Origin: an uncultured Arcobacteraceae bacterium
Lineage (GTDB): Bacteria > Campylobacterota > Campylobacteria > Campylobacterales > Arcobacteraceae
DNA: 64,000 nt
Direction: 5' to 3'
Assembly (NCBI GenBank): GCA_964633845.1
Contig: CAZWLA010000001.1
Span: 31,300-95,299, forward strand
A program made the translations under genes and the position numbers. Shown here piece after piece: positions 19,006 through 51,187 of the stretch. The notes beneath the pieces were generated by a model that saw only the letters and a program-made list of their open reading frames with translations, had not been told where the DNA came from and made no database searches. Numbering within the stretch: the stretch's first letter is position 1; every line of letters starts with the position of its first letter.

Positions 19006-19986
19006 TTAGATTGGTAGTACTCTTATATTTTCATCTACTTTAGACTTAAGTGTAGATTCAATAGCATAAAGTGTACCAGTTGAACCAGAAGCACATGATC
19101 CACAAGCACCTAAGTATCTAATATAAATATCATAGTATGGAAGATTTTCTTTAATATCTACAATCTCCATATCTCCACCATCCATAACAAGCATAGGTCT
19201 AATATATTCAGCAATTACAGCATCAACTGCATGTATTCTTTGTACTATTGTCATCTTATCAAAACTCATCTCACCAGATTCCGTTGTATTTGCAGCAGCT
19301 TCAAGTGCCTCTTGATCCATTTGAGCTCTTACATCAGCTAAGATATCAACTAAATAGATATCTTTTGGTTCATGACCACCAGGTCTAATACATGATTTAC
19401 AGAATGCTCCAGCTTTTGTAATATCAATAATTTGTTCAACTTCTTTGATATTGTTTTCTCTAATAGCATTGATAATCTCTTGATGAGTAACTCTTGCACA
19501 CTCACATACAATATCTTGATTTACTAGAGTGTCTCTGTCTACACCTTTATATTGAGATGCAGCTTCTAAAATAACATCATATGCCATAACTGAACAGTGC
19601 ATTTTTTGTGGTGGAACTGCTGGAGTACCATCATCATCTCTTAAAAATGCTTCAACTTCTGTATTTGTAATATTAATCGCTTCATCAACTTTTTTACCTA
19701 TACAAAGCTCAGCCATAGCATCAGAAGATGCAATCGCTGTACCACATCCAAAAGATTTAAATTTACTATCTAAAATAGTATCTGTTTTTTCATCTACAAG
19801 CCAAAATAGTCTTACTGCATCACCACATGATTCTGCTCCAAAATCTGCTACAATTAATCTTGCACCAGCTTTATCTGCATCTTCTTGTGTAAATTCACCC
19901 ATTGCAACTGGGTTATTCATTCTATCTTGAACTTTTTTACTGTATTGTTCCCATACATTTCCACTAATCATATCACTTCTTGCCAT
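19006..19986 (-). CDS. nifU: NifU-type Fe-S cluster scaffold protein (three-domain, Helicobacter/Campylobacter type)
   Basis: 326 aa. IscU-like N-domain (GAESCGDAV, FGCGTAIASS), central [2Fe-2S] cysteines, C-terminal Nfu domain with GACGSCASG. Confidence 0.9.
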   Translation of the reverse strand: MARSDMISGNVWEQYSKKVQDRMNNPVAMGEFTQEDADKAGARLIVADFGAESCGDAVRLFWLVDEKTDTILDSKFKSFGCGTAIASSDAMAELCIGKKVDEAINITNTEVEAFLRDDDGTPAVPPQKMHCSVMAYDVILEAASQYKGVDRDTLVNQDIVCECARVTHQEIINAIRENNIKEVEQIIDITKAGAFCKSCIRPGGHEPKDIYLVDILADVRAQMDQEALEAAANTTESGEMSFDKMTIVQRIHAVDAVIAEYIRPMLVMDGGDMEIVDIKENLPYYDIYIRYLGACGSCASGSTGTLYAIESTLKSKVDENIRVLPI

Positions 19987-20017
19987 GATTTACTCCTTTT
20001 ATATTTTCTTTTTTATA

Positions 20018-21229
20018 CTAATGATGGTCTTCAATGAATGCTGAAAATGCTTCTTGCTTAGCATATGTCATTGAAATTTCTCTAATTCTAGGTACAATTC
20101 TTTGTAACTCTTTGATTACATAATCAATCTCATCTTCAGTAGTAAACTTACTTAGTGCAAACATAACAGTTGCATTTGCAATTTCTACTTTTTCTCCAAG
20201 AGCTTCAACTACAGCTGATGCTTCAAGATCTTCAGATGAACAAGAACTACCAGTTGATATATAGATACCAGCTTCATTCATATCCCATAGCATTGCTTCA
20301 CCTTCAATACCTCTAAAAGATGCAACTACAATATTATTTAGTCTATGCTCTTTTGGTACATAAGATTTAGTATCAGGAATTTCTAAAATAGCTTTTTCTA
20401 GCTTATCTCTTAGTTTACCAGTATGATTTGCAATATAACCAATACCCATATCTGAGTTTGCCATCTCAATTGCTTCACCCATGGCTACAGCACCATTATT
20501 ATAAACAGATCCTGCTCTTTTACCACCCATTACATTTTTTGATCCATGTATATGAGGTACATATGGTGATTTAGCTTTTACATAAAGTCCACCAACACCT
20601 TTTGGTCCATGAAATTTATGTGCTGACCATGTAAAATAGTTTACACCAAGATCTTGTAGATCAACTTTAATCTTACCAATTGCTTGTGCTGCATCTGTAT
20701 GCATAGGGATTCCTGCTGCTTGACACATTCTAGCGATCTCTTTTATAGGCTGAATAGCACCTGTTTCATTAGATGCATATAATACAGATACAAGTGCTGT
20801 TTTATCTGTCATAGCTGCCTTTAGTTCTTCTAATGATACTAAACCATTTTCATCAGTACCTAAGTAAGTAACTTCCATACCAAAAGACTTACAGTATGCT
20901 AAAGGTGATTTAATAGAAGCATGCTCTGCTACAGTTGATATGATATGGTTTTTAGCATTGTCTTTATCTCTCAGGTATGCATCTAAAAATGTTTTAATTA
21001 CAGCATTATTTCCTTCTGTTGTTGAAGATGTAAATATAATATCATCATCATCACTTGCATTTAAACTATCGTATATTTTGTCATATGCACCATTTAGTGC
21101 AACTCTACATTCTATACCTTGTTTGTATATTACATTTGCATTTCCAAATGTTTTTGTTGATTCACAATAGATCTCTTGAATTTTTGGATCCATTGGTGTT
21201 GTTGAGTTATTATCTAAATAAACTTCCAT
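20018..21229 (-). CDS. nifS: NifS-type cysteine desulfurase
   Basis: 403 aa. PLP lysine motif SAHKFHGPKGVG and active-site loop STGSSCSS. It lies immediately upstream of nifU. Confidence 0.92.
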   Translation of the reverse strand: MEVYLDNNSTTPMDPKIQEIYCESTKTFGNANVIYKQGIECRVALNGAYDKIYDSLNASDDDDIIFTSSTTEGNNAVIKTFLDAYLRDKDNAKNHIISTVAEHASIKSPLAYCKSFGMEVTYLGTDENGLVSLEELKAAMTDKTALVSVLYASNETGAIQPIKEIARMCQAAGIPMHTDAAQAIGKIKVDLQDLGVNYFTWSAHKFHGPKGVGGLYVKAKSPYVPHIHGSKNVMGGKRAGSVYNNGAVAMGEAIEMANSDMGIGYIANHTGKLRDKLEKAILEIPDTKSYVPKEHRLNNIVVASFRGIEGEAMLWDMNEAGIYISTGSSCSSEDLEASAVVEALGEKVEIANATVMFALSKFTTEDEIDYVIKELQRIVPRIREISMTYAKQEAFSAFIEDHH

Positions 21230-21372
21230 ATATTTTCCCTTTTACTATCCTATTTCTTAAATAAGACAATTTTTATCTTCTTTTAAAATAGTATTGAAAG
21301 GTTACTAAATTTATACTTAACTTTAGATATTAGTATATTATTGTATGATTAGGAAACTTAATAGGAGTCGCA

Positions 21373-22035
21373 TTGGCAAGTACAACTGAATACTTAAAAT
21401 CTATTTCATTCTTTGAATACTTAAGTCAAAGTGACCTAGAAAAGATTGAAAAATATAGTATTGTTAAAAAGTATCCAAAAGGATCAATAATGATGTATGA
21501 GGGAGATAATAGTACAAATATATCTTTCTTGCAAGCAGGTTTAGCTAGAGTTTATAAAATGGATAAGTTTGATAATGAAATCTTTTTATATCATATATAT
21601 GAACATCAATTGATAACAGAGCTTTCTACACTAAATGAAAACATTATTACATGTGCCTCAAATATATCTATAGATGAAGAATCTGTTATTATAAATATAG
21701 ATTACAATAAATTTAGAGATGACTTTATCTCTACAAATATATTAACAATTCAGTTTTTGCAAGAGATATTTGCAAAGACACAAAAACTTCAATGTGTAGT
21801 TAATCGTGAATTAGTATTTGATTCTACTGCTAAAGTAGCACATTTTTTAAGTGAAAATTTAGAGATGTTTAATAAGTTAAAACGTACAGAAGTAGCATTA
21901 CTTTTACATCTTCAGCCTGAAACATTATCACGTGTTCTTAGAAAACTACAACGACAAGATTTAATTGGAGTTGAAGTAAAAAAAGTTTTTATAATAGATC
22001 AAGATGGTTTATATGATCTATTTCAAGGGGTGTAA
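21373..22035 (+). CDS. Crp/Fnr-family transcriptional regulator lacking an FNR Cys cluster (Dnr/NnrR/NssR-like)
   Basis: 220 aa. TTG start 5 nt after AGGAG. cNMP-binding-like beta-roll N-domain. C-terminal HTH RTEVALLLHLQPETLSRVLRKL keeps the E--SR recognition residues of FNR-type proteins. No N-terminal cysteines. Confidence 0.8.
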   Translation: MASTTEYLKSISFFEYLSQSDLEKIEKYSIVKKYPKGSIMMYEGDNSTNISFLQAGLARVYKMDKFDNEIFLYHIYEHQLITELSTLNENIITCASNISIDEESVIINIDYNKFRDDFISTNILTIQFLQEIFAKTQKLQCVVNRELVFDSTAKVAHFLSENLEMFNKLKRTEVALLLHLQPETLSRVLRKLQRQDLIGVEVKKVFIIDQDGLYDLFQGV

Positions 22036-23016
22036 ATGAAGATAAATATTAGTATATTAAGCAAAATTAAAATAGTTGGAGCACTCCTTACAACTGTAAT
22101 TTTTACAGTAATTGGTGTAACTATACATATTAATAATAAAACATCAAAAGATGCTACGATTATTAATATGGCAGGTAAGCAACGTATGCTTACACAAAAG
22201 ATGGCAAAAAATATATTTTATATACATACTAATAATAAATATGATTTTAGAGAATTAGATGCAGCATATGAGCTATTTTCAAAACATCTATATATGTTGT
22301 CAAATGGTGATTACAAAAAAGGGCTATATGTTGTAGATGATGAATTAATTAATAATCAGCTTATAAAAGTAAAAAAGATGTGGCAAGAGTTTAGTCAACA
22401 CATTATTAGTTTTAAACACAATAAACTTACAAAGCAAGACAATAATAAGTTAGTGCAAGTTATATATGATACAAATGGTGAATTACTTTATGAGATTGAC
22501 AGACTTGTAGGCATGTACACTAAATATAGTGAAGCTCAAATTTCTTATATTATATCATTTCAATATTATGCAGGTTTATTTTTATTAATAATATTAGTAT
22601 ATATACTAGTTGCACTTAAAAAAATTGAATCACAAGTGAATAACTTTTTAGAATATACAAAAAGCTTAGCAAGTACGACTGATATATCAGATGTAGTGAT
22701 AAAAGAAATTGATGATGATTTAGAATTTAAAGAAGCATCTTCATCACTAAGTTGTTTTATTACAAAAGTAAATAGTGCAGTACAAGAGTCAAATATTGCA
22801 TTAGAACATTCACAAAAAGCTTCATATAAGTTAGAGCAGATCAATGATGAATTTGATGAGGTATTAAAAGGCATTGAAAATTCAGCTATGCTAGCAGATG
22901 ATATAGATAAAAGTGAAGATATGATGATAGAATCTAGTGAAGAGCTATTGCAATCTACGCAAAAACTACAAAAATTAAAAGATCAATTAGATAAATTATT
23001 AAAAAGTTGTCAATAA
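22036..23016 (+). CDS. Membrane protein with PilJ/NarX-type periplasmic four-helix-bundle sensor domain, no recognisable output domain
   Basis: 326 aa. TM1 at about residues 10-32, periplasmic INMAGKQRMLTQKMAKNIFYI (P-box-like motif of PF13675/NarX-type sensors), TM2 around residue 190. The acidic coiled-coil tail of about 120 aa has no kinase, MCP-signalling or GGDEF motifs. Its ATG directly follows the regulator's TAA. Confidence 0.65.
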   Translation: MKINISILSKIKIVGALLTTVIFTVIGVTIHINNKTSKDATIINMAGKQRMLTQKMAKNIFYIHTNNKYDFRELDAAYELFSKHLYMLSNGDYKKGLYVVDDELINNQLIKVKKMWQEFSQHIISFKHNKLTKQDNNKLVQVIYDTNGELLYEIDRLVGMYTKYSEAQISYIISFQYYAGLFLLIILVYILVALKKIESQVNNFLEYTKSLASTTDISDVVIKEIDDDLEFKEASSSLSCFITKVNSAVQESNIALEHSQKASYKLEQINDEFDEVLKGIENSAMLADDIDKSEDMMIESSEELLQSTQKLQKLKDQLDKLLKSCQ

Positions 23017-23201: not shown

Positions 23202-23215
23202 TTGATTAGTGTCAA
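23202..23215 (+). promoter_or_regulatory. FNR/DNR-type binding box TTGAT-N4-GTCAA upstream of napA
   Basis: TTGATTAGTGTCAA. The centre (23208/23209) lies about 41.5 bp upstream of the start predicted from the TATAAT at 23238-23243. That is class II activator geometry. Confidence 0.55.
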
Positions 23216-23237: not shown

Positions 23238-23243
23238 TATAAT
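23238..23243 (+). promoter_or_regulatory. Predicted -10 hexamer of the napA promoter
   Basis: TATAAT within GGTATATAATTTT, about 67 nt upstream of the napA ATG. There is no good -35, consistent with an activator-dependent promoter. Confidence 0.45.
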
Positions 23244-23309
23244 TTTCATGTTAGAAGTTTTATCGATAAGCGATAAGATGTTCTAGAGAAATAATTAAGG
23301 AGAGAAATT

Positions 23310-26171
23310 ATGGCACTTTCAAGAAGAGATTTTCTGAAAAGTTCAGCAGCAGCTTCTGCAGCGGCAGCTATTGGTATGAGTGTACCAGCAGAGATGCAAG
23401 CAGCAGCAACTAAGGCTGATAGTGATTGGAGATGGGACAAGGCGGCTTGTCGATTCTGTGGTACTGGTTGTGGTATTATGATGGCTACAAAAGGTGAAGG
23501 TAAAGATAGAAAGATTGTTGCGGTTAAAGGTGACCCAGCAGCACCAGTAAATAGAGGACTTAACTGTATTAAAGGTTACTTTAATGCAAAAATTATGTAT
23601 GGTGCGGATAGACTTACTAAGCCATTATTAAGAGTTAATGCTCAAGGTGAATTTGATAAGCAAGGTAAATTTGCTGAAGTTTCATGGCAAAGAGCATTTG
23701 ATATTATGGAAGAGAAAGCAAAAGCAGCATTTGCTGAAAAAGGACCTGAAGGGGTTGCAGTATTTGCTTCTGGACAGTATACAGTTATGGAAGGTGCGGC
23801 AGCACAAAAAATGATGAAAGCTGGATTTAGATCAAATGCTATTGATCCAAATGCTAGACACTGTATGGCATCAGCAGTTGTTGGTTTCTACCAAACATTT
23901 GGTGTAGATGAGCCTTCTGGTTGTTATGATGATATTGAGCTTACAGATACTGTTGTATCTTGGGGATCAAATATGGCAGAGATGCACCCAATTCTATGGT
24001 CAAGAGTTACAGATAGAAAGCTTTCTGATCCAGATAGAGTTAAAGTTGTAAATATTTCTACATATAGACATAGAACTTCAGATTTAGCTGATATGGAGAT
24101 TATTTTCTCTCCAAATACAGATACTGCTATGTGGAACTACATTGCAAGAGAGATTGTATATAATGCACCTGAATCTATTGATTGGGATTTCGTAAATAAA
24201 AATATGGTATTCGCTGCTGCTAACCCAAATATTGGTTATGGTATGAGAAAATCAAATGAGAAATCTATTAAAGAGGGTAAATATACTGCTAAAGAGATGG
24301 AAACTATTTCAAAAGAGATGAGTACAATTGTTTCTGAAAAAGAAGCTCCAGCGTTAGCACCATATGGATACAAAGCTGGTGATAAGATGGTACATAATAA
24401 GCCAGGTTTACCACACTGGTTAATTGAATTTGAAGAGTACAAAAAATCTTTAGAGCCATATACATTAGATTATACTGCAAAAATTTCAAAAGGTGACCCA
24501 GATGAAGATATTGAAGAGTTCAAAAAGAAACTACAATATTTAGCTGATCTATATATTGAAAAAGGTAGAAAAGTAGTATCATTCTGGACAATGGGTATGA
24601 ATCAACATACTAGAGGTACTTGGACAAATACATTATCGTACAATGTTCACTTCTTACTAAATAAACAAGCTAAACCAGGTGATGGTGCATTCTCACTTAC
24701 TGGTCAACCATCAGCATGTGGTACAGCAAGAGAAGTTGGTACATTTACACATAGATTACCAGCAGATATGATGATTAAAAATCCTAAGCATAGAGCTATG
24801 GCTGAAGAAAAATGGCATCTTCCTAAGGGAACTTTAAATGGTCAAATGGGTCAACATATTATGAGAATCCATAGAGATATTGAAGATGGACATGTTAAGT
24901 TTGCATGGGTAAATGTATGTAATCCTTACCAAGATTCTGCATCTGCATCACACTGGATTAAAGCTGCAAGAGAGATGGATAACTTTATCGTAACTTCAGA
25001 TGGTTACCCAGGTATTTCTGCAAAAGTTTCTGACCTTATTTTACCATCAGCAATGATGTATGAAAAATGGGGAGCATATGGAAATGCAGAGAGAAGAACT
25101 CAGCACTGGAGACAGCAGGTATTACCTGTAGGTGATGCAATGTCTGATACATGGCAATGGGTAGAATTCTCTAAAAGATTTACAGTAAGAGATCTATGGA
25201 TGAAAGACGTAAAAGTTAAATGGGGTAAAAAGACTATGAAAGCTATCCCTGAGTCTGAGATTAGAAAAGCTGGATATACTCCTGATACTACTATGTTTGA
25301 GATTTTATTTGCAAATGATAGAGCAAAATCTTATAAAAAAGATATGAATGATCCTGTTCAAGCTGGATATGATGATACTGATTCTTCAGGTGATGAAAGA
25401 GGTGTTATTGGTTCAGATGGTAAAGAGTGGCAAGGTTACGGATTCTTTATCCATAAGTACCTATTTGAAGAGTATGCATCATTTACAAGAGGACATGGAC
25501 ATGATCTTGCACCATTTGATGTTTACCATAAAGTAAGAGGACTTAAGTGGCCAGTTGTTGATGGTAAAGAAACTCAGTGGAGATTTAATGCTAAATATGA
25601 TCCATATGCAGCAAAAGCAGTTGCTAAATCTGGAAATGGTTCTACGCATGCATTCTACGGTGGATTCCTTAAGAAGAGACCTCAAGGTGATTTAACTGGT
25701 ATTAGAAAAGGTAAGAAATTAAGCTATGCTGATAAGCCTGGTAAACACCACTTAAAAGATAAGGCTAAAATCTTTGCTAGACCATATATGGATCCACCAG
25801 AAATGCCAGATACAGAGTACCCAGTATGGTTATGTACAGGTAGAGTTCTAGAGCACTGGCATTCAGGTACAATGACTATGAGAGTTCCTGAATTATATAG
25901 AGCAGTTCCAGAAGCATTATGTTATATGCACCCAGAAGATGCTAAGAAGTATGGTGTTAAGCAAGGTCAACTTGCGTGGGTTGAATCAAGAAGAGGTAAA
26001 GTTAAAGCAAGAGTTGAAACTAGAGGTAGAAACCGACCTTCAAGAGGACTTGTATTTGTTCCATGGTTCGATGAAAAAGTATTTATTAATAAAGTTTGTT
26101 TAGATGCGACTTGTCCATTATCAAAACAAACAGATTATAAAAAATGTGCTATTAAAATTTACGCGGTATAA
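23310..26171 (+). CDS. napA: Periplasmic nitrate reductase catalytic subunit NapA
   Basis: 953 aa. Tat signal [17 protein letters not shown], [4Fe-4S] motif CRFCGTGCG, molybdopterin oxidoreductase body. RBS AAGGAGAG. Confidence 0.97.
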
Positions 26172-26183
26172 AGGGAGGCAATT

Positions 26184-26888
26184 ATGAAAACTTTAGGAAA
26201 ATTAACATTAAGTTTAGCGGTTGCGGCAACGGTATTGTTTACAGGGTGTAATGATGCACCTTCTAAGCAAGAGGTTGCAAAGCCAACAATTACTGAGGCC
26301 TCTTTAGGTCTTAGAAAAACAGATCTATATTGTGAAGATAGTACAGTTGCTGAGCAAACAAACTATAGAAAGTCGTCTGCGGGAGGTGCTGCTAAAATTA
26401 ATAGAGCATTCCAAGATGCTCCACCTATGATTCCACATGATACAGAAGGTATGCTACCAATTACAATTAGTAATAACCAGTGTACTGGATGTCATATGCC
26501 AGCAGTTGCAAGTATGATGGGAGCTACACCAATTCCTGTTTCTCATCTTACAGACTTTAGACCTAAGCATACGCTTGTAGGTCAAGACTTTAAGCCTGCT
26601 ATTGACAATATGAAAAATCAAGTTGCTATCTCTAAAAATAAAGATGGTAAACTTACTGGTGCAAGATTTAACTGTACTCAGTGTCATGCTCCTCAGTCAC
26701 AGGGTAACTTAGCTGTTGAAAATACTTTTGAAGCAGCATATACTACTAAAACTGGAGCATCTAAGTCTACTTGGGATAGTTCAGAATTTATGCATGGAAT
26801 TGATACTATTAAAGGTAAAGCTGGACAAGTTACTGCAGCAGATGTTGCAAATAAAGATTCAGTATCTGGTCAACCATTAGGTCACTAG
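26184..26888 (+). CDS. napB: Dihaem cytochrome c NapB, predicted lipoprotein with C-terminal extension
   Basis: 234 aa. Two CXXCH motifs (CTGCHM, CTQCHA) in NapB-like spacing. The signal peptide ends in lipobox LFTGC. About 70 aa follow the second haem motif. Confidence 0.8.
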   Translation: MKTLGKLTLSLAVAATVLFTGCNDAPSKQEVAKPTITEASLGLRKTDLYCEDSTVAEQTNYRKSSAGGAAKINRAFQDAPPMIPHDTEGMLPITISNNQCTGCHMPAVASMMGATPIPVSHLTDFRPKHTLVGQDFKPAIDNMKNQVAISKNKDGKLTGARFNCTQCHAPQSQGNLAVENTFEAAYTTKTGASKSTWDSSEFMHGIDTIKGKAGQVTAADVANKDSVSGQPLGH

Positions 26889-26928
26889 ATAATATAAATT
26901 GTAGTAAAATTATTTTATTACAATATAG

Positions 26929-26955
26929 AGGGTGAGATAATTCTCACCCTTTTTT
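26929..26955 (+). terminator. Strong intrinsic terminator between napB and napG
   Basis: AGGGTGAGA, TAAT, TCTCACCCT, followed by TTTTTT. It is preceded by a second AT-rich palindrome at 26898-26924. Confidence 0.8.
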
Positions 26956-26971
26956 AGTCAAAAAAATATTA

Positions 26972-27012
26972 ATATTAGAATAAGTTATTTTGAGTATAAT
27001 GTATTCTAATAT
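26972..27012 (+). promoter_or_regulatory. 10-bp perfect inverted repeat bracketing a TATAAT upstream of napG (candidate promoter/operator)
   Basis: ATATTAGAAT (26972-26981) and ATTCTAATAT (27003-27012) flank TATAAT at 26995-27000. Each arm is followed by or overlaps a GAATAAGTTA direct repeat (26978-26987 and 27013-27022). Confidence 0.35.
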
Positions 27013-27045
27013 GAATAAGTTAGTTGATAACGGAGGAAATCTATT

Positions 27046-27825
27046 ATGACAGATAGAAGAAAATTTTTACTAAATATGGCTAGAGGTGTTGGTCTTGCAG
27101 GACTTGCAGGGCTTACATGGAGTGCATATGTAGATGAAGTAACAGCTTCTACATTAATACTACGACCACCAGGGGCTTTAAAAGAAGAAGATTTTTTAGC
27201 TACATGTATTAAGTGTGGGATGTGTGTGGAAGCATGTCCATATGATACATTATTATTAGCAAAACCTGGTGACCATAAACCTATGGGTACACCATATTTT
27301 GTACCTAGAGAAGTACCTTGTTATATGTGTCCTGATATACCTTGTGTACCTGTATGTCCTACTGGTGCACTAGATCAAAAATCTGTATCTAATGATCAAG
27401 GTGAACTCGATATAAATAAAGCTGATATGGGACTTGCTGTAATAGATGATGAGTCATGTATCGCATTTTGGGGTATTCAGTGCGATGCTTGTTATCGTGC
27501 ATGTCCAATTTTTGGAGATGCTATTACTATTGAATATACAAAAAATGAACGTACAGGTAAGCATGCATTTATGAAACCAATAGTTCATAGTGATCATTGT
27601 ACTGGATGTGGATTATGTGAGAGAGCTTGTGTAACAGAAAAACCTGCAATATTTGTACTTCCAAGAGAAAATGCACTTGGAAAAGCTGGAGATTATTATA
27701 TCAAAGGTTGGGATAAAAATGACGAGAAAAGACTTGAAAAGGCAACAAGTGAAACAACAACTACAGAAATTAGTAAAGATTCAGCAATGGACTCATTAAA
27801 TAGCAGTATGGAGGATCTATACTAA
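27046..27825 (+). CDS. napG: Periplasmic ferredoxin-type protein NapG
   Basis: 259 aa. Tat signal DRRKFLLNMARG and four Cys clusters (CIKCGMCVEACP, CPDIPCVPVCP, CDACYRACP, CTGCGLCERAC). Confidence 0.9.
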   Translation: MTDRRKFLLNMARGVGLAGLAGLTWSAYVDEVTASTLILRPPGALKEEDFLATCIKCGMCVEACPYDTLLLAKPGDHKPMGTPYFVPREVPCYMCPDIPCVPVCPTGALDQKSVSNDQGELDINKADMGLAVIDDESCIAFWGIQCDACYRACPIFGDAITIEYTKNERTGKHAFMKPIVHSDHCTGCGLCERACVTEKPAIFVLPRENALGKAGDYYIKGWDKNDEKRLEKATSETTTTEISKDSAMDSLNSSMEDLY

Positions 27826-28641
27826 ATGAAAACTTTATGGAATAATTATAGATATTTAATATTAAGACGATTAGTACAAGTTGGAATAATGGTATTGTAT
27901 TTTGGTGCAAATGCTTGGGGTTGGACTATACTTATGGGAAATCTAAGTTCATCAAATTTTTTAGGACTTATTCCACTTAGTGATCCTTATGCAGCACTAC
28001 AAATGCTTGCAGCTGGCGCATTGATGGCTACAGACTTGATTATTGGTGTAGCAATAATCACTATAGTTTATGGTTTAATTGGTGGTAGAATGTTTTGTTC
28101 TTGGGTTTGCCCTGTAAATCCAATCACTGATGCAGCAAATTATTTAAGAAGAGTACTTGGTTTTAATCAAATACAAAAAAGACAACCAGCTACAAGAAAT
28201 ATGAGGTACTGGACTATTGGGCTATCTTTAATCATATCATTTGCACTAGGTGTAACTGCATTTGAATTTATATCTCCTGTATCTATGGTACATAGAGGTA
28301 TTATATTTGGACTTGGATTTGGATGGGCAGCAATACTTGTAATATTCTTATTTGATCTGTTTGTACTTAAAAATGGATGGTGTGGACATATTTGTCCTCT
28401 TGGCGGATTTTATTCTATAGTAGGTAAATTCTCACTTCTTAGAGTTAATCATAATGTAGATAATTGTACAGAGTGTATGAAATGTAAAGAGGTGTGTCCA
28501 GAAGATCAAGTACTTTATATGATTGCTAAAAATTCAGAACAAGTCTTAGATGGTGAGTGTACAAATTGTGCAAGGTGTATAGAGGTTTGTGATGATGATG
28601 CGCTAGAGTTTTCAATTAGGAAATTAAAGAGTGGATCGTAG
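27826..28641 (+). CDS. napH: Membrane quinol dehydrogenase subunit NapH
   Basis: 271 aa with four TM segments. CSWVCP and CGHICP motifs. C-terminal 2x[4Fe-4S] (CTECMKCKEVCP, CTNCARCIEVC). Confidence 0.9.
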   Translation: MKTLWNNYRYLILRRLVQVGIMVLYFGANAWGWTILMGNLSSSNFLGLIPLSDPYAALQMLAAGALMATDLIIGVAIITIVYGLIGGRMFCSWVCPVNPITDAANYLRRVLGFNQIQKRQPATRNMRYWTIGLSLIISFALGVTAFEFISPVSMVHRGIIFGLGFGWAAILVIFLFDLFVLKNGWCGHICPLGGFYSIVGKFSLLRVNHNVDNCTECMKCKEVCPEDQVLYMIAKNSEQVLDGECTNCARCIEVCDDDALEFSIRKLKSGS

Positions 28642-29146
28642 GGATCTTTTTAGTTCAATTGGTAAATCATTTCAGGGTGAAAAGCGAGTAGATATAGGGA
28701 CTATACGACCACCATACTTTAAAAATTTATTTGATTTTGATAAATGTATTGAATGTGAAGATAAGTGGTGTATTGGTGCTTGTGAAGAAAATATTATTGA
28801 TGTTGATAAAGATGGAATACCAACATTAAACTTCACTAATAGTGGATGTACATATTGTGATGAGTGTGCAGTTGATTGTGACCAAGGTGTACTAGAAGTT
28901 GAGTATAGACAAAATATAAAAGCAAATATAAAAATAGATATGATTAAGTGTATGAGTTGGCATGATACTATGTGCTTTTCTTGTAAAGATCCATGCTTAG
29001 ATAATGCTATAGAATTTATAGGAATGTTTAGACCAGAAATTAATCTAAGTCAATGTACTTTATGTGGTTTTTGTATAAAATACTGTCCTGTAGATGCTAT
29101 AAGTATTAGTCAATTAAAAGAGGAGACAAATAATGAAACTATTTAA
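28631..29146 (+). CDS. napF: Cytoplasmic ferredoxin-type protein NapF
   Basis: 171 aa. GTG start overlapping the napH end, N-terminal RRDLF, several Cys clusters (CTYCDECAVDC, CTLCGFCIKYCP). Confidence 0.8.
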   Translation: MDRRDLFSSIGKSFQGEKRVDIGTIRPPYFKNLFDFDKCIECEDKWCIGACEENIIDVDKDGIPTLNFTNSGCTYCDECAVDCDQGVLEVEYRQNIKANIKIDMIKCMSWHDTMCFSCKDPCLDNAIEFIGMFRPEINLSQCTLCGFCIKYCPVDAISISQLKEETNNETI

Positions 29147-30092
29147 GATATATATATTAATAATATTGTTATTTAACTTGTCTTGGGCTATAGATATGAA
29201 GCCAACATTATCTTTTATAGCTAGTGCTGGTGTGACAAATCTATCAAGTGATAAAGATAATATTTATATATCTACAAAAGAAGGGAAAATTGATATCTTT
29301 AATATTAAAGATAAAGTTATTGCTAGTAGTATTGAACTTCCTATGATAAAAGATTTTATGGGTGATGATGTACCACCTAAAATCTATTGTACAGATATTT
29401 ATGAAAACCAGATTTTAATAGCATCAAAAGGTAAATCTGGATTTTCTAAGATATTTAAATATGAGAATAATCAGCTTATCAACATTATTGATGTTCAAGA
29501 TCAAAAAGCTATCCTTAAAGCTGTATGGATTGATACAAATAGGATTTTATTTGCAACATTAAGTAATCAGTTTTATTTATATGATATTAAAATTAAAAAA
29601 TATATTTGGCAGATACAAGTGTCTGGATCAAAATTTTCAGATTTTGTATTAAATGAAAAACGAACTCAATTACTTGCAGCAGATGAGAGTGGTGATTTAA
29701 AGCTTCATAATATCAAAGATGGTTCTTTTATCAAATCATATTCTGGTCAGAATCTTGACAATGTATTTCAAGTCGATCTAAAAAATGGAAAAATTATAAC
29801 TGCTGGACAAGATATGAGAACAGTAGTATATGATAAGGACAAGGGAACTTCTTATTCTCAAAAAGCTAGATTTTTAATCTATAGTGCTGCTCTTAGTCCT
29901 AGTGCAAAAATAGGGGCATACGCTAAGTATGAAAATAATGATGTGCAAGTATTTCATACTGAATATAAAAATGATATTATTAAGTTAACTAATAATAAAA
30001 TGACAATAACAAAAATACTATTTATTAATGAAGATGAAGTTTTTGTAGCAAGTGATGCACGAAAAGTAAACTATTATAAATTAAATAAATAA
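29133..30092 (+). CDS. napL: Periplasmic beta-propeller-like protein NapL
   Basis: 319 aa with a signal peptide and repetitive beta-strand-rich sequence. It occupies the position between napF and napD typical of epsilonproteobacterial nap loci. Confidence 0.7.
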   Translation: MKLFKIYILIILLFNLSWAIDMKPTLSFIASAGVTNLSSDKDNIYISTKEGKIDIFNIKDKVIASSIELPMIKDFMGDDVPPKIYCTDIYENQILIASKGKSGFSKIFKYENNQLINIIDVQDQKAILKAVWIDTNRILFATLSNQFYLYDIKIKKYIWQIQVSGSKFSDFVLNEKRTQLLAADESGDLKLHNIKDGSFIKSYSGQNLDNVFQVDLKNGKIITAGQDMRTVVYDKDKGTSYSQKARFLIYSAALSPSAKIGAYAKYENNDVQVFHTEYKNDIIKLTNNKMTITKILFINEDEVFVASDARKVNYYKLNK

Positions 30093-30112
30093 AGTTAAAA
30101 AAGGAAAGTTAA

Positions 30113-30499
30113 ATGAATGTTTCAAGTGTAGTAGTACAAACAGTACCAAAGTTCTTAGATGGTCTTGTAGAAGATCTTAAAAACTGTGATGCATGTGATT
30201 ATCATATGCATGATGAAAAAGGACGAATTATCGTTACTATTGAGGGTGAAAATGTAGGTGAAGAGCTTAAGAAGATGAAAGTTATTCAAGCTTTACCTCA
30301 TGTTGTTGCTGCTGATATGCAAATGGCATATAGTGAAGATGAGTTAGATATCCATATGGAAAGACTTGAAAATGCAGATGCAGTTCCAACAATGCTTCAT
30401 GACAATGATATTAGACCTGAAGAGATTATTTATAATGGTGATCTTAAAAAGAAAGATCTAGAAGGTTTTGCTAAGCAATTTGATAAAACAACAAGATAA
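30113..30499 (+). CDS. napD: NapA maturation chaperone NapD
   Basis: 128 aa. N-terminal VSSVVVQT...IIVTIEGE ferredoxin-like fold pattern. It is the last gene of the nap locus. Confidence 0.75.
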   Translation: MNVSSVVVQTVPKFLDGLVEDLKNCDACDYHMHDEKGRIIVTIEGENVGEELKKMKVIQALPHVVAADMQMAYSEDELDIHMERLENADAVPTMLHDNDIRPEEIIYNGDLKKKDLEGFAKQFDKTTR

Positions 30500-41052: not shown

Positions 41053-41607
41053 ATGAAATCCTATTTAATCACTGATCCAAAATATTATACAGATAATCCT
41101 AAAACATTTAAAAATATATTAAATAGAGTACTGTCTAAATATAAACCATCAATTGCTTGTTTTCGAGATAAAACATCATCAAATGTTGAACAACTAGCTA
41201 AAGTTTTTTTAGATGTCTGTAAAGATAATAATATAGAAATAATTTTAATTAACTCAAATATTAATTTAGCCAATAAGCTTGGATTTAATGGTGTACATCT
41301 TACATCATCTCAATTTGATAATATTCAAAAAGCAAAAGATTTAGAACTGTTTACAGTTATAAGCTGTCATGATGAAGATGAATTAAATTTAGCACAAATG
41401 AATGGTGCTAGTATGGCAACATATTCACCAATATTTGATACACCTAATAAAGGGAAGCCATGTGGAATAACAGATCTAAATAATATTACTTGCAAGTATA
41501 ATATACCTATTATTGCTCTAGGTGGTATTATAGATCAATCACATATTCAACAAATTGCTAAGACAAAAGCAATTGGATTTGCATCTATTAGATACTTCAT
41601 AAACTAA
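41053..41607 (+). CDS. thiE: Thiamine-phosphate synthase (ThiE/TenI family)
   Basis: 184 aa TIM-barrel pattern. NGVHLTSSQ, SCHD, ATYSPIFDTP, IIALGGI. ThiE versus TenI is not resolvable by eye. Confidence 0.65.
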   Translation: MKSYLITDPKYYTDNPKTFKNILNRVLSKYKPSIACFRDKTSSNVEQLAKVFLDVCKDNNIEIILINSNINLANKLGFNGVHLTSSQFDNIQKAKDLELFTVISCHDEDELNLAQMNGASMATYSPIFDTPNKGKPCGITDLNNITCKYNIPIIALGGIIDQSHIQQIAKTKAIGFASIRYFIN

Positions 41608-48298: not shown

Positions 48299-49393
48299 AT
48301 GTTAAAATATATACTTTCATTTATTTTTATTCTTATTATTGTTACTATAATCTCTCTTAAAAAAATAGATAGTAATATAAATGAGCAAACTATAGAGTTT
48401 GCTATTGATAAATCTAAACTAGCACTTCAATCTCAATTTGAACAAGAAAAATCAGATGCATTAAAATTAGGATTAATGCTAGCACATAATAAACAACTTA
48501 TTGATGCCCTTGAAAATGAAGATGAAGAGTTAGGATACAATATTCTTCACTCAATTATTACAAATATTAAACAGCATACTAATGAAACTATTAGGATACA
48601 GATTATTACAGCTGAAAAAAATATTTTCGCAAGATCTTGGGATGATGTATATGCTGGTATGCCTATTGGTGATTATAGAAAAGACTTGGAGTATTTTAAA
48701 AAGAGTAAAATACCAAGAGCATCAATAGAGGTTGGTGCTATGCTAACTTTAAAAACTACTATTCCAGTATATCAAGATGACTTCCTATTAGGATTTATTG
48801 AGATTATCAGTCTTTTTGATAATGTAACAACTCATCTAAAAAATATGGGTATTGACTTATATGTTTTAATGGATGATAAATATTCAAATATCTCTGTATT
48901 TATGAGAAATAATGCCATTGTAGGTAATTTTATAATTGCAAATAAAAACTACAATAATAACAATATATCAATACTTAATGAGCTTGATTTTAAGAGCTTG
49001 TTATCTGGAGAGATAGAATATAAAAACAAACATTATATCTTTTCAGAAGATATGCTAAATGGGAATGGTAAAAAAATTGGTATCTATTTATTTTCATTAC
49101 CCGAGGTAAATCTTGAATATTTTAAAGCGTACAATGGTGAGTCTGCATCATTAATTAATTTAAGCAGAGATGAACTATATGAAACCACAAGTAATACGCA
49201 TTATGAAGATATTAATAGTGAAAAGCTTTATATTCAAACCCTATTGAATATTAAAGATAATATACCTAGTAAAGATAAAGTAAATCATATTAAATTAATT
49301 CGAACAGAATTAAATAAATATAAAAAAGAAGATTTAATAAATTTTATATTAAATAAACAAAAAACAAAAAGTATACATGGAGAGATAAGATGA
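48299..49393 (+). CDS. Membrane-anchored periplasmic sensor-like (Cache/PDC-like) protein without output domain
   Basis: 364 aa. It has a single N-terminal TM and an alpha/beta region of about 250 aa reminiscent of double-PDC sensor ectodomains. There is no second TM and no kinase, GGDEF or MCP motif. Its stop overlaps the response-regulator start (ATGA). The family call is tentative. Confidence 0.5.
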   Translation: MLKYILSFIFILIIVTIISLKKIDSNINEQTIEFAIDKSKLALQSQFEQEKSDALKLGLMLAHNKQLIDALENEDEELGYNILHSIITNIKQHTNETIRIQIITAEKNIFARSWDDVYAGMPIGDYRKDLEYFKKSKIPRASIEVGAMLTLKTTIPVYQDDFLLGFIEIISLFDNVTTHLKNMGIDLYVLMDDKYSNISVFMRNNAIVGNFIIANKNYNNNNISILNELDFKSLLSGEIEYKNKHYIFSEDMLNGNGKKIGIYLFSLPEVNLEYFKAYNGESASLINLSRDELYETTSNTHYEDINSEKLYIQTLLNIKDNIPSKDKVNHIKLIRTELNKYKKEDLINFILNKQKTKSIHGEIR

Positions 49394-50046
49394 AGATATT
49401 ATTGTTAGAAGATGAATATTCACTAAGAATTAGTATTAAAGAATTTCTTGAAGATTTAAAGTATAGTGTAGATGATTATAGTGATGGGGATGATGCATAT
49501 AATGCAATCTATTCCAATACATATGATCTATTATTGTTTGATGTAAATGTACCAAATATGAGTGGCTTTGAGATATTGAAAGCTATTAGAGATGATAAGC
49601 TTACTATTCCTACTATATTTTTAACATCAATGACAGATATGCAAAGTCTAAAAGAGGGATACAGTGTAGGTTGTTGTGATTATATAAGAAAACCATTTGA
49701 TTTGGATGAGTTAGATTTGCGAATTACACAAGTATATAATAGTTTTTATATGGATAATAACAAAAATATTACATTAGATAGAGATTTAGTATTTGAGATG
49801 AAAGAGGGACAATTATTTTATCAAGATACAGAAATAGTATTAAGAAAAGCAGAAAAAGATATATTAGATTTACTTGTAAAAAATCTTAATTCTACAGTAT
49901 CAATGGGTATGTTTCAAGATGAGATATGGAATGACTATGTAGATCCAGGGACAATCAGAACGCATATAAAAAATTTAAAACAAAAGTTACCAAATAGTGA
50001 TCTTATTAAAAATCGTAGGGGATTAGGATATATAATTGAACGATAG
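49390..50046 (+). CDS. OmpR/PhoB-family response regulator
   Basis: 218 aa. Receiver domain (LLLEDE, phospho-acceptor in LLLFDVNVPNMSG, KP at RKPF). Winged-helix C-terminus (TIRTHIKNLKQKL, RGLGYII). Confidence 0.9.
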   Translation: MKILLLEDEYSLRISIKEFLEDLKYSVDDYSDGDDAYNAIYSNTYDLLLFDVNVPNMSGFEILKAIRDDKLTIPTIFLTSMTDMQSLKEGYSVGCCDYIRKPFDLDELDLRITQVYNSFYMDNNKNITLDRDLVFEMKEGQLFYQDTEIVLRKAEKDILDLLVKNLNSTVSMGMFQDEIWNDYVDPGTIRTHIKNLKQKLPNSDLIKNRRGLGYIIER

Positions 50047-51187
50047 TAGTTATGGCGTAAAAAATGCCTATATTTTTACAGTATTAATTGGTATTATATT
50101 ATTTGCACCACTTTTTTTCTATACGATGCATATGAAGTCAATTCATGATATTAAAAATGAATTGAAATTAAAGTCAAAAGCTTATTTGATTATACAAAAT
50201 ATGGATGCATTTGATACTCATAGTGAATATTTTAAATATCCTAGGTTTCAAACATTTAGATCTGGTCTTTATAATATAAACGGAACAAAGATATTTTCAA
50301 CTATAGATCATAAGATTCCATCATTGCAAAAGGGTTACTATAAATATAATGACAATGCTTATTTTGTATTGCAGCTACCAGCATATAAGTATTTTAATGC
50401 CTCTTATTTAATAGTCGAAAATAAACTATCTTATAACGATGTTTATAAAAAATCAATTTTTATTGCGTTATCAATTATAGTCTTAATATTTTTATTAAGT
50501 ATTATATTTTTAAATAGGTTTGCCAAACCATTTAAAATAGTAAATAAGCAACTTGATAATTTTATAAAAGATTCTATACACGAGATAAATACACCATTAT
50601 CTATTATAAATATAAATATTGATTTGTTTAATAAAAAGTTTGAATCCAATAAGTATACAAATAGGGTAAAAGCAGCTACAAAGGTATTATCAAATATTTA
50701 TAATGATATGGATTATCTAATTAAGCATGATAGAGTACACTATGACAAGAAAAAAATTAATATGTGCCATATGCTAAAAGAGAGAATTGATTATTTTACT
50801 GAGATAGCTTTGATGAAGAATATTAACATAGTAAGTGATATTCAAAGTGATATTCAAATTAATATAAATCCAAAGCAACTACAAACATTGATTGATAATA
50901 ATATATCTAATGCTATAAAATATTCTTATGAAGAAAATATAATTAATATTAATTTATACACTAAAGACAAGCAATACTATTTAGAATTTACTGATTATGG
51001 TATAGGTATTAAAGATATTGATAAGATATTTACAAGATACTATAGAGAAGAGCGACAAACTGGTGGCTTTGGTATAGGTCTTAATATTGTAAAAACTATA
51101 ATTGATGAGAACAATATCACTTTAGATATTAAATCTGAACCTAAAAAAGGTAGTACATTTATTTATATATTTCCTATGAGTATATAG
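50036..51187 (+). CDS. Sensor histidine kinase
   Basis: 383 aa. TM1, a periplasmic loop of about 110 aa, and TM2. H-box SIHEINTPLSII, N-box NNISNAIKYS, G-boxes DYGIGI and GGFGIGLNIVK. The TTG start overlaps the regulator's end, so the start is uncertain. Confidence 0.85.
   Translation: MNDSSYGVKNAYIFTVLIGIILFAPLFFYTMHMKSIHDIKNELKLKSKAYLIIQNMDAFDTHSEYFKYPRFQTFRSGLYNINGTKIFSTIDHKIPSLQKGYYKYNDNAYFVLQLPAYKYFNASYLIVENKLSYNDVYKKSIFIALSIIVLIFLLSIIFLNRFAKPFKIVNKQLDNFIKDSIHEINTPLSIININIDLFNKKFESNKYTNRVKAATKVLSNIYNDMDYLIKHDRVHYDKKKINMCHMLKERIDYFTEIALMKNINIVSDIQSDIQININPKQLQTLIDNNISNAIKYSYEENIININLYTKDKQYYLEFTDYGIGIKDIDKIFTRYYREERQTGGFGIGLNIVKTIIDENNITLDIKSEPKKGSTFIYIFPMSI

Follow-up and report, generated by a model that had tools for sequence, protein, structure and literature searches.

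A PilJ/NarX-type membrane sensor paired with a Crp/Fnr-family regulator: a candidate kinase-less module for nitrogen-oxide respiration in Campylobacterota

Introduction

Campylobacterota have been reported to lack orthologues of FNR, ArcA and NarP (PMC6682613); the NarXL/NarQP systems are also reported missing. Induction of the nap, nrf and nos genes in Wolinella succinogenes goes through three Nss regulators of the Crp/Fnr type, which respond to nitrate (NssA), nitric oxide (NO; NssB) and N2O (NssC), and reviews give the perception of nitrate by Nss regulators as unknown (PMC6682613, PMC8139620). The subject of this report is a pair of adjoining genes in a 64,000-nucleotide stretch of DNA (hereafter, the window) from an uncultured Arcobacteraceae bacterium (assembly GCA_964633845.1, contig CAZWLA010000001.1, positions 31,300 to 95,299). 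They encode a Crp/Fnr-superfamily regulator of 220 amino acids (aa; positions 21373..22035 of the window) and a membrane sensor of 326 aa (22036..23016), and they precede the nap operon for periplasmic nitrate reductase; all coordinates are on the plus strand of the window unless otherwise indicated. On balance, the two products probably form a two-protein, kinase-less signalling module that serves nitrogen-oxide respiration in Campylobacterota by direct contact.

The regulator shares with the Nss regulators (NssR of Campylobacter jejuni; NssA, NssB and NssC of W. succinogenes; NIL_RS03760 of Nitrosophilus labii) its Crp/Fnr family membership without an FNR-type cysteine cluster, a recognition helix of the Dnr type and a TTGA-N6-TCAA operator. 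Nss regulators control nap, nrf and nos, and the NssA-like gene of N. labii (NIL_RS03760) lies upstream of nap (PMC11539149), as does the regulator gene here. Unlike the regulator of the window, Nss regulators have no membrane partner described in searchable papers; no account of a PilJ-domain partner, or of such a pair, was found in the searchable literature, the primary Nss study lying outside that scope. The parts are known (NarX/PilJ-type sensor, HAMP, Nss/Dnr-type regulator), and their kinase-less coupling appears to be undescribed. A preliminary description of this DNA, made from the sequence alone, had likewise known of no account of such a pairing, which agrees with the searchable literature; it had made no connection to the Nss regulators of Campylobacterota.

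The NarX and NarQ kinases of Escherichia coli (NarQ structures 5iji, 5jgp), which bind nitrate and nitrite alike (PMC6381276), resemble it in their N-in topology, in a periplasmic bundle with the P-box arginine at the dimer axis, and in a second transmembrane helix (TM2) that runs into a HAMP-like segment; the sensor model aligns to the NarQ fragment over ~250 columns, and respiration genes of the nap/nrf type, which NarX and NarQ control, would be its targets as well. Unlike NarX and NarQ, the sensor has no signalling helix, GAF-like domain, DHp histidine box or ATPase, and phosphotransfer is impossible because it is paired with a regulator of the Crp/Fnr family, in place of a response regulator of the NarL/NarP kind. 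The chemoreceptors McpN (PA2788) and PilJ are the closest relatives of its ligand-binding domain in sequence and structure; they have the G-x-x-R-M motif in common with it, and their HAMP domain and the helix that follows are homologous to its own. The sensor differs from them in lacking the signalling hairpin and methylation module of a methyl-accepting chemotaxis protein (MCP), and its genomic context is a transcription factor with respiratory operons, rather than che genes.

Precedents for control by contact exist in other protein families. In NasS-NasT and NreA-NreBC, a nitrate receptor without catalytic output controls a transcription or antitermination regulator by direct binding, and in anti-sigma/extracytoplasmic function (ECF) sigma pairs, Mlc-PtsG and PspA-PspBC a membrane protein holds and releases its partner. 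NreA has been cited as a nitrate-binding protein (PMC8199190). The locus would resemble NasS and NreA in concept, with a non-catalytic nitrate receptor controlling a regulator by contact; these receptors are, however, soluble proteins of the cytoplasm with an NrtA-like or GAF fold and with an ANTAR antiterminator or a kinase as partner, whereas the receptor here spans the membrane, has a Crp/Fnr factor for its partner and would sense nitrate in the periplasm. With the anti-sigma/ECF, Mlc-PtsG and PspA-PspBC systems it would share, by analogy, the combination of a soluble transcription factor with a membrane protein that senses on the extracytoplasmic side, the two genes being co-transcribed and often coupled in translation; it differs from them in its protein families, in the lack of a sigma factor and in an input that would pass through a HAMP-type transmembrane module.

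Pairing of the regulator and sensor genes

The regulator gene begins with a TTG codon preceded by the Shine-Dalgarno sequence AGGAG (21363-21367), and its TAA stop codon (22033-22035) directly abuts the ATG of the sensor gene (22036). A second Shine-Dalgarno sequence, AAGGGG, lies within the 3' end of the regulator gene, giving a junction (22025..22038) of the translational-coupling type. This stop-start arrangement suggests coupled, approximately equimolar synthesis of the two proteins, as is typical of interacting pairs. The layout in the preliminary description, with the regulator stop abutting the ATG of a 326-aa open reading frame (ORF), was confirmed, coordinates included. The two genes have a G+C content of ~26%, against 31% for the window.

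Relatives were retrieved from species-representative genomes as 555 stretches, 80 of which were kept and analysed as loci; these 80 come from Campylobacterota only. Three of the loci start inside the sensor gene; in each of the other 77, a Crp-type regulator homologue with the same orientation as the sensor gene lies immediately upstream of it, and the pairing was also seen in 10 further contexts. The stop-to-start gap in the 71 pairs with complete ORFs is mostly -4 nucleotides (nt; range -32 to +8). The pair is, thus, conserved in relatives, upstream of nap and elsewhere, and the sensor is not the orphan that it had been taken for; it is always accompanied by the regulator. Extra Crp paralogues within these loci have no partner carrying the acidic C-terminal tail that characterizes the sensor (see below). 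Across more than 85 contexts, no recurrent kinase, response regulator or che gene was found beside the tail protein, and the Crp gene was its sole constant neighbour.

The napA gene lies directly downstream of the pair in 35 loci and after an insert in 7; nap is otherwise arranged in 9 loci, and 21 loci have none within 6 kb. In eight of these 21 (L009-type order; gene identities checked with Pfam in L009), moaA lies upstream and the pair is followed by genes for a small membrane protein, a NorC-like cytochrome c, a NorB-like haem-copper oxidase and NirS, which is a cytochrome cd1. In other loci (L011-type), a tetrapyrrole methylase and then an amino-acid-type ABC transporter are encoded downstream, and a role of these genes in haem d1 synthesis was considered and rejected on the basis of these identities. 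The preliminary description had made nap the specific target of the module, and this part of it does not hold: the association is with nitrogen-oxide respiration generally (nap, nrf, nor/nir).

Closer relatives of the window (regulator ~70% identical, sensor 56%) have the same nifU-nifS / regulator-sensor-napA-napB layout. In the window, the NifS-like and NifU-like genes (19006-21229, minus strand) are divergent from the regulator gene, an arrangement kept in L081, L082 and L084; in several loci of Arcobacteraceae, their place is taken by moaA and the gene for an Rrf2-family regulator.

Architecture of the sensor

Hydrophobic segments at residues ~13-32 and ~173-195 bracket the periplasmic domain. 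The only Pfam domain matched by the 326-aa protein is PilJ (PF13675; residues 33-132, E 3.6e-18, 66.1 bits against a cut-off of 26.6), which is also matched by 104/104 aligned homologues. The PilJ/NarX-type ligand-binding domain as a whole, delimited by profile and Foldseek comparisons, covers residues 33-170 (22132..22545) and is basic (pI 9.1). When a profile of 21 homologues was compared with the PDB, PilJ (7zjr, E 6e-13) and the ligand-binding domain of McpN (6gcv, E 1.9e-9) were matched, and NarQ weakly. An AlphaFold2 (AF2) model based on 104 homologues has a mean pLDDT of 78.9, and more than 90 over the periplasmic bundle. In this model, the first transmembrane helix runs into helix 1, an antiparallel four-helix bundle lies between the two transmembrane helices, and helix 4 continues through TM2 to residue 213; on the cytoplasmic side follow a connector of 15 residues (214-228), a long helix (229-283), a low-confidence loop and a terminal helix (294-325). 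Foldseek superimposed the modelled bundle on the McpN domain 6gcv with a TM-score of 0.80-0.82 and a root-mean-square deviation of 2.0 A, and the first ~250 residues on crystal fragments of NarQ comprising the sensor, transmembrane and HAMP parts with a TM-score of 0.75-0.78. A PilJ/NarX-type periplasmic domain with a P-box-like motif and two transmembrane segments, as had been proposed from the letters alone, is supported by these comparisons.

The P-box-like motif, INMAGKQRMLTQKMAK, corresponds to residues 43-58 (22162-22209). Within it, the predicted nitrate-contact motif G47-K48-Q49-R50-M51 (22174..22188) equals G58-A59-Q60-R61-M62 of McpN in the alignment to 6gcv. In McpN, a single nitrate is bound by R61 at the dimer axis, with further contacts from G58, A59 and M62 (PMC6381276). 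The sequence G-K-Q/E-R-M is present in 71/72 sensor orthologues, the remaining one having A-K-E-R-M, and the motif suggests that the ligand of the sensor is nitrate, perhaps also nitrite.

The cytoplasmic tail (residues 196-326) begins with a divergent HAMP-like segment (residues 196-250; 22621..22785), composed of a first helix (AS1), the 15-residue connector and a second helix (AS2) with the consensus E-x-x-E-x-x-x-x-x-N-C-F-I-x-K-V-N-S-A. This helix-connector-helix order directly after TM2 was found in the AF2 model, in the superposition on NarQ and by hhalign, in an alignment of tail positions 13-129 to the dCache MCP P0348 (residues 329-452; 93% probability, E 2.5e-7); the aligned stretch of P0348 takes in the Pfam-defined HAMP (314-366) and ~85 residues beyond it. 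The hhalign match and the NarQ superposition together indicate that the cytoplasmic part, a divergent HAMP followed by a short hairpin, goes back to the stretch of an MCP that lies next to the membrane. The MCP homology is confined to the HAMP and the proximal helix, and the signalling tip for CheA/CheW arrays is missing.

The C-terminal acidic helical hairpin (residues 251-326; 22786..23013), which contains an invariant S293-E294-D295 (22912-22920), is the proposed output module for docking of the regulator. The tail has a net charge of -14 and a pI of 4.3 (family mean charge -11.8), and it is the best-conserved region of the sensor: mean column conservation is 0.76 in the C-terminal helix, 0.73 in HAMP AS2 and 0.62 in the periplasmic domain. 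No kinase, GGDEF/EAL or significant MCPsignal match was obtained in 104/104 homologues (best match to MCPsignal, PF00015, E 0.2), DHp (HisKA_3) and HATPase_c were found neither in the sensor nor in its homologues, and the sensor stops 130 residues past TM2. The tail had been described as devoid of kinase motifs, MCP hairpin and GGDEF/EAL, which the homologues bear out, although a divergent HAMP has to be added to it.

The protein is of full length in its family. Its word-index homologues (n = 248) measure 312-339 aa throughout, except for one partial sequence, and across all classes of sensor the lengths are 300-345 aa or 420-465 aa, always with the tail at the C-terminus. A search with a tail-only profile, covering 1.84 billion representatives, gave 127 proteins with a C-terminal tail in every one; the only longer proteins were weak MCP matches via the HAMP. 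The preliminary description had named as counter-evidence a periplasmic domain unlike PilJ, or longer homologues revealing a truncated MCP or kinase; PF13675 matches, and the lengths are constant. The alternative of a truncated MCP was right as to ancestry, the HAMP and proximal helix being MCP-like, and wrong as to a pseudogene, since the form is fixed and conserved.

Sensor variants sharing the tail and the regulator

Besides the single-PilJ sensors, the tail profile gave two more classes: in one, of 420-465 aa, the PilJ domain is doubled in tandem, and in the other, of ~300-326 aa, the bundle lacks both the PilJ signature and the arginine motif. Every double-PilJ and non-PilJ member examined has a Crp-family gene directly upstream, and the regulators of these variants belong to the same subfamily (34-44% identity; shared NEIFLY, NRE/D-VFD-AKVA and QPETLSR motifs).

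The neighbouring operons differ among the variants. P0267 lies between haem d1/nirS genes and napA, and P0436 ahead of napAGHB, whereas P0422 (Sulfurospirillum barnesii SES-3, CP003333) and P0407 (a metagenome-assembled genome of Sulfurospirillaceae) come right after nrfA-nrfI and a gene for ~216 aa. In L095 (S. barnesii CP003333, 754410-765789) and L096, the regulator/double-PilJ pair follows nrfA, nrfI (a ResB/CcsA-type haem lyase) and this ~216-aa gene, which has no Pfam match; the nrfA-nrfI neighbourhood in nitrate-ammonifying Sulfurospirillaceae suggests that the module is tied there to nrf, not nap. P0270 and P0283 stand in contexts unrelated to nitrogen. The Crp gene upstream of the non-PilJ protein P0276 is broken in two at positions 1000-1668 of L089, one piece encoding 81 aa of the N-terminal part and the other 67 aa with the HTH (helix-turn-helix); the independent metagenome contig L090 has the 67-aa HTH piece with a partial ORF ahead of it, and at the P0276 locus the module may be in decay.

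Pairing, thus, survives swaps of both the sensor domain and the neighbouring operon, which leaves the regulator and the tail as the invariant unit. An exchangeable sensor domain and an exchangeable operon are what one would expect of a tail that serves this regulator as its own output domain.

The regulator and its cysteines

The regulator matches Pfam cNMP_binding and HTH_Crp_2, both above the cut-offs, and can be aligned over its whole length to structures of CRP and DNR. It consists of an N-terminal cNMP-like beta-roll without the arginine that binds cyclic AMP (cAMP), and a C-terminal HTH; in the alignment to CRP, the cAMP-phosphate-binding residues R82/S83 are replaced by T93/C94. Its NCBIfam scores are 44 for CRP (cut-off 266) and 19.6 for Fnr (cut-off 228), and it is also far below the FixK cut-off. 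The recognition helix contains the motif E-T-L-S-R (residues 183-187; 21919..21933), which is invariant in 72/72 orthologues and corresponds to the 'E--SR' of FNR/Dnr-type proteins. The 'E--SR' helix of FNR-type regulators reads TTGA half-sites, or TTGAT boxes. This Dnr/FNR-type helix, taken together with the TTGA-N6-TCAA operator at promoters for nitrogen-oxide respiration, suggests that the regulator is Nss/Dnr-like.

An FNR-type N-terminal cysteine cluster is missing from the regulator, which has no cysteine ahead of residue 94. The preliminary description was correct in this respect but wrong in calling the protein Cys-less, as two cysteines are present and conserved: C94 (21652..21654), at the position of CRP Ser83, in 99% of 72 orthologues, and C141 (21793-21795), in the central helix, in 96%. 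Both are retained in the regulators of the double-PilJ partners L095-L097 (Sulfurospirillum-type), and both are lacking in the regulators of non-PilJ sensors and of one double-PilJ sensor (L087); these losses indicate that the cysteines are dispensable for pairing. A second input, of NO or redox state, through C94/C141 is possible. The sensor tail has conserved cysteines of its own in the single-PilJ clade, C240 in HAMP AS2 (22753-22755) and the penultimate residue C325 (23008-23010); they tend toward joint loss (L050, L055, L078) and are absent from double-PilJ tails. All four cysteines occur together in 60/72 loci of the single-PilJ clade, and some variant pairs have none. A metal or disulfide site shared between regulator and tail was considered and rejected, because Sulfurospirillum-type regulators keep both of their cysteines and the partner tails have none.

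The nap operon and its promoter

The presumed target, napA-napB-napG-napH-napF-napL-napD (23310..30499), was annotated from Pfam matches (TAT signal, molybdopterin, NapB, Fer4, the beta-propeller of napL, NapD). The order A-B-G-H-F-L-D is common to the closest relatives L081 and L082, and the prevailing order among the other loci retrieved from Campylobacterota is napA-G-H-B-F(-L-D).

The 293-bp gap ahead of napA contains the candidate Crp/Fnr (Nss/Dnr-type) box TTGATTAGTGTCAA (23202..23215), a perfect match to the consensus TTGA-N6-TCAA, which was taken from PMC11539149. A box lies at a conserved distance in 35/35 loci with napA directly after the pair; it is perfect in 27 of them and has a single mismatch in 8, against a background in which 5.8% of 350-nt stretches contain a perfect box. 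A putative -10 hexamer, TATAAT (23238..23243), is located 22 nt past the box; with transcription predicted to start near 23250, the box would be centred at about -41.5, as in class II promoters. The distance from the start of the box to this predicted transcription start is 48 nt, the same as that measured in N. labii (PMC11539149). Among 49 loci scanned, 43 of the 45 with a scorable -10 have a spacing of 22 or 23 nt between the box and TAnnAT, and the same spacing is also seen in nap promoters that do not adjoin the pair. A generic scan for sigma-70 promoters and terminators was uninformative in DNA of 26% G+C. No sign of autoregulation was obtained, boxes not being enriched upstream of the regulator gene (6/71 perfect, against a background of 3.7%).

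The whole window has 4 perfect boxes, against 3.4 expected by chance. The three others are at 41315, 46166 and 63081; two of them fall within ORFs, one of which is thiamine-phosphate synthase-like, and the third precedes an MltA-like ORF by 40 nt. Given this chance-level count and the unrelated neighbouring genes, the three are probably fortuitous.

Proposed mechanism and alternative explanations

In the mechanism proposed, the 326-aa protein would be a dimeric inner-membrane receptor, the periplasmic bundle of which binds nitrate, possibly nitrite, via the Arg50 motif. The signal would pass through TM2 and the HAMP-like segment into the acidic hairpin, which would take the place of the kinase of NarX/NarQ or of the chemoreceptor signalling domain and would directly contact the co-translated Crp/Fnr-family regulator. 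An anti-activator switch seems most likely: the regulator would be held at the membrane when no ligand is bound, and released or switched on by the ligand, and it could then bind the TTGA-N6-TCAA box near -41.5 of nap or, in other genomes, nor/nir or nrf promoters. Sequestration and release are favoured by analogy with anti-sigma/ECF pairs, and because the DNA-binding domain is mildly basic and could be covered by the acidic tail.

This mechanism extends the preliminary description, which had suggested a non-canonical one-step module; the PilJ match, the conserved pair and the persistence of the pairing across sensors and operons sustain that suggestion, without its Cys-less regulator and its restriction to nap. 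It is an even question whether the HAMP-hairpin tail is a hitherto unrecognized output domain devoted solely to gating a Crp/Fnr factor, whether it defines a modular class of systems using neither phosphotransfer nor a second messenger, and whether it supplies the missing nitrate input to Nss regulation of nap, nrf, nor and nir. If so, a NarX/PilJ-HAMP transmembrane module would drive a transcription factor without a kinase, which would be a new type of output for bacterial receptors, and a compact two-gene nitrate-responsive switch would become available for synthetic biology. Nitrate-dependent sulfur oxidation at vents, in redoxclines and in sediments is dominated by Campylobacterota, among which there are also nitrate ammonifiers that live with hosts, and a conserved receptor gene translationally coupled to the regulator gene is a concrete candidate for nitrate perception by Nss regulators.

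The domain architecture, ligand motif, strict pairing, tail conservation and promoter boxes are the observed part of the case for a kinase-less module. Several points weigh against it. Nitrate as the ligand, the contact between tail and regulator, and the direction of the switch are inferred. The fold of the hairpin is of low confidence in the AF2 model (pLDDT 41-61). The Pfam HAMP profile (PF00672) misses the linker, and neither the sensor nor any of 104 homologues gave a match at E<=1; the HAMP check proposed in the preliminary description is, thus, negative with Pfam, and the segment is recovered by structure and profile-profile comparison only. PilJ has similar motifs, and to our knowledge nitrate is not established as a ligand of PilJ, a limit on reading the ligand of the sensor from its motif. 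The regulator is Nss-like by its recognition helix and operator, and may or may not be the counterpart of Wolinella NssA. No fusion of regulator and sensor (Rosetta stone) was found among the tail-profile matches. In mirror-tree comparisons, the correlation of regulator with tail (r 0.89; partial 0.54) is barely above that of regulator with periplasmic domain (0.86; 0.51) and of regulator with NapG/H.

The sensor might be functional but signal to a protein encoded elsewhere (a soluble kinase, a cyclase or a heterodimerizing chemoreceptor), the regulator being merely a co-expressed member of the regulon. HAMP and coiled-coil segments are able to heterodimerize, and the HAMP and proximal helix of the tail are homologous to their MCP counterparts, which fits such a route, as does the inferred nature of the tail-regulator contact. 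Signalling elsewhere is nevertheless unlikely: over the >85 contexts it is the Crp gene alone that is constant, with no kinase, response regulator or che gene recurring, the stop-start overlap points to coupled, about equimolar synthesis of the regulator and the sensor, and the tail does not have the MCP tip required for CheA/CheW arrays.

A module of the proposed kind might respond to nitrite or another oxyanion, or take its main input, NO or redox state, through the regulator cysteines, with the membrane protein serving only as a tether. Such a reading would fit the position of the pair ahead of norCB-nirS in Arcobacteraceae; both variants nevertheless seem quite unlikely. The first is compatible with the binding of nitrite as well as nitrate by NarX and NarQ (PMC6381276), but the contact motif is nearest to that of McpN, which is nitrate-specific. 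The second would draw on the conservation of C94/C141 across both the single- and double-PilJ classes and on the response of Nss-type relatives to NO (PMC6682613); the absence of both cysteines from the regulators of non-PilJ sensors, and from that of the double-PilJ L087, argues against it.

It is distinctly improbable that the membrane protein is an effector or accessory of nitrate respiration (modulating Nap, transport or membrane organization, for example) that is only co-transcribed with the regulator. Its position directly upstream of nap in 35/80 loci and its nitrate-type binding motif could be accounted for in this way. The pair persists, however, where nap is not nearby, beside nor/nir, nrf or unrelated genes, sensors without the nitrate motif still have the tail and the Crp neighbour, and the cytoplasmic tail is more constrained than the periplasmic domain.

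A functionless remnant of a decayed chemoreceptor or sensor kinase, which the homology of the tail to the membrane-proximal part of MCPs might suggest, is a vanishingly improbable reading and is effectively refuted by hundreds of full-length homologues of constant size, by strong conservation, above all in the tail, and by conserved synteny and translational coupling.

A further candidate receptor without an output domain

A different set of genes in the window (48299-51187) encodes a 364-aa dCache_3 protein without an output domain (48299-49393), an OmpR-type response regulator (49390-50046) and a HisKA/HATPase kinase (50036-51187). They are situated just upstream of genes for a cytochrome c, SoxY, a SoxA-like protein and a SoxB-like protein, and may constitute a split sensor-plus-kinase system for sulfur oxidation.

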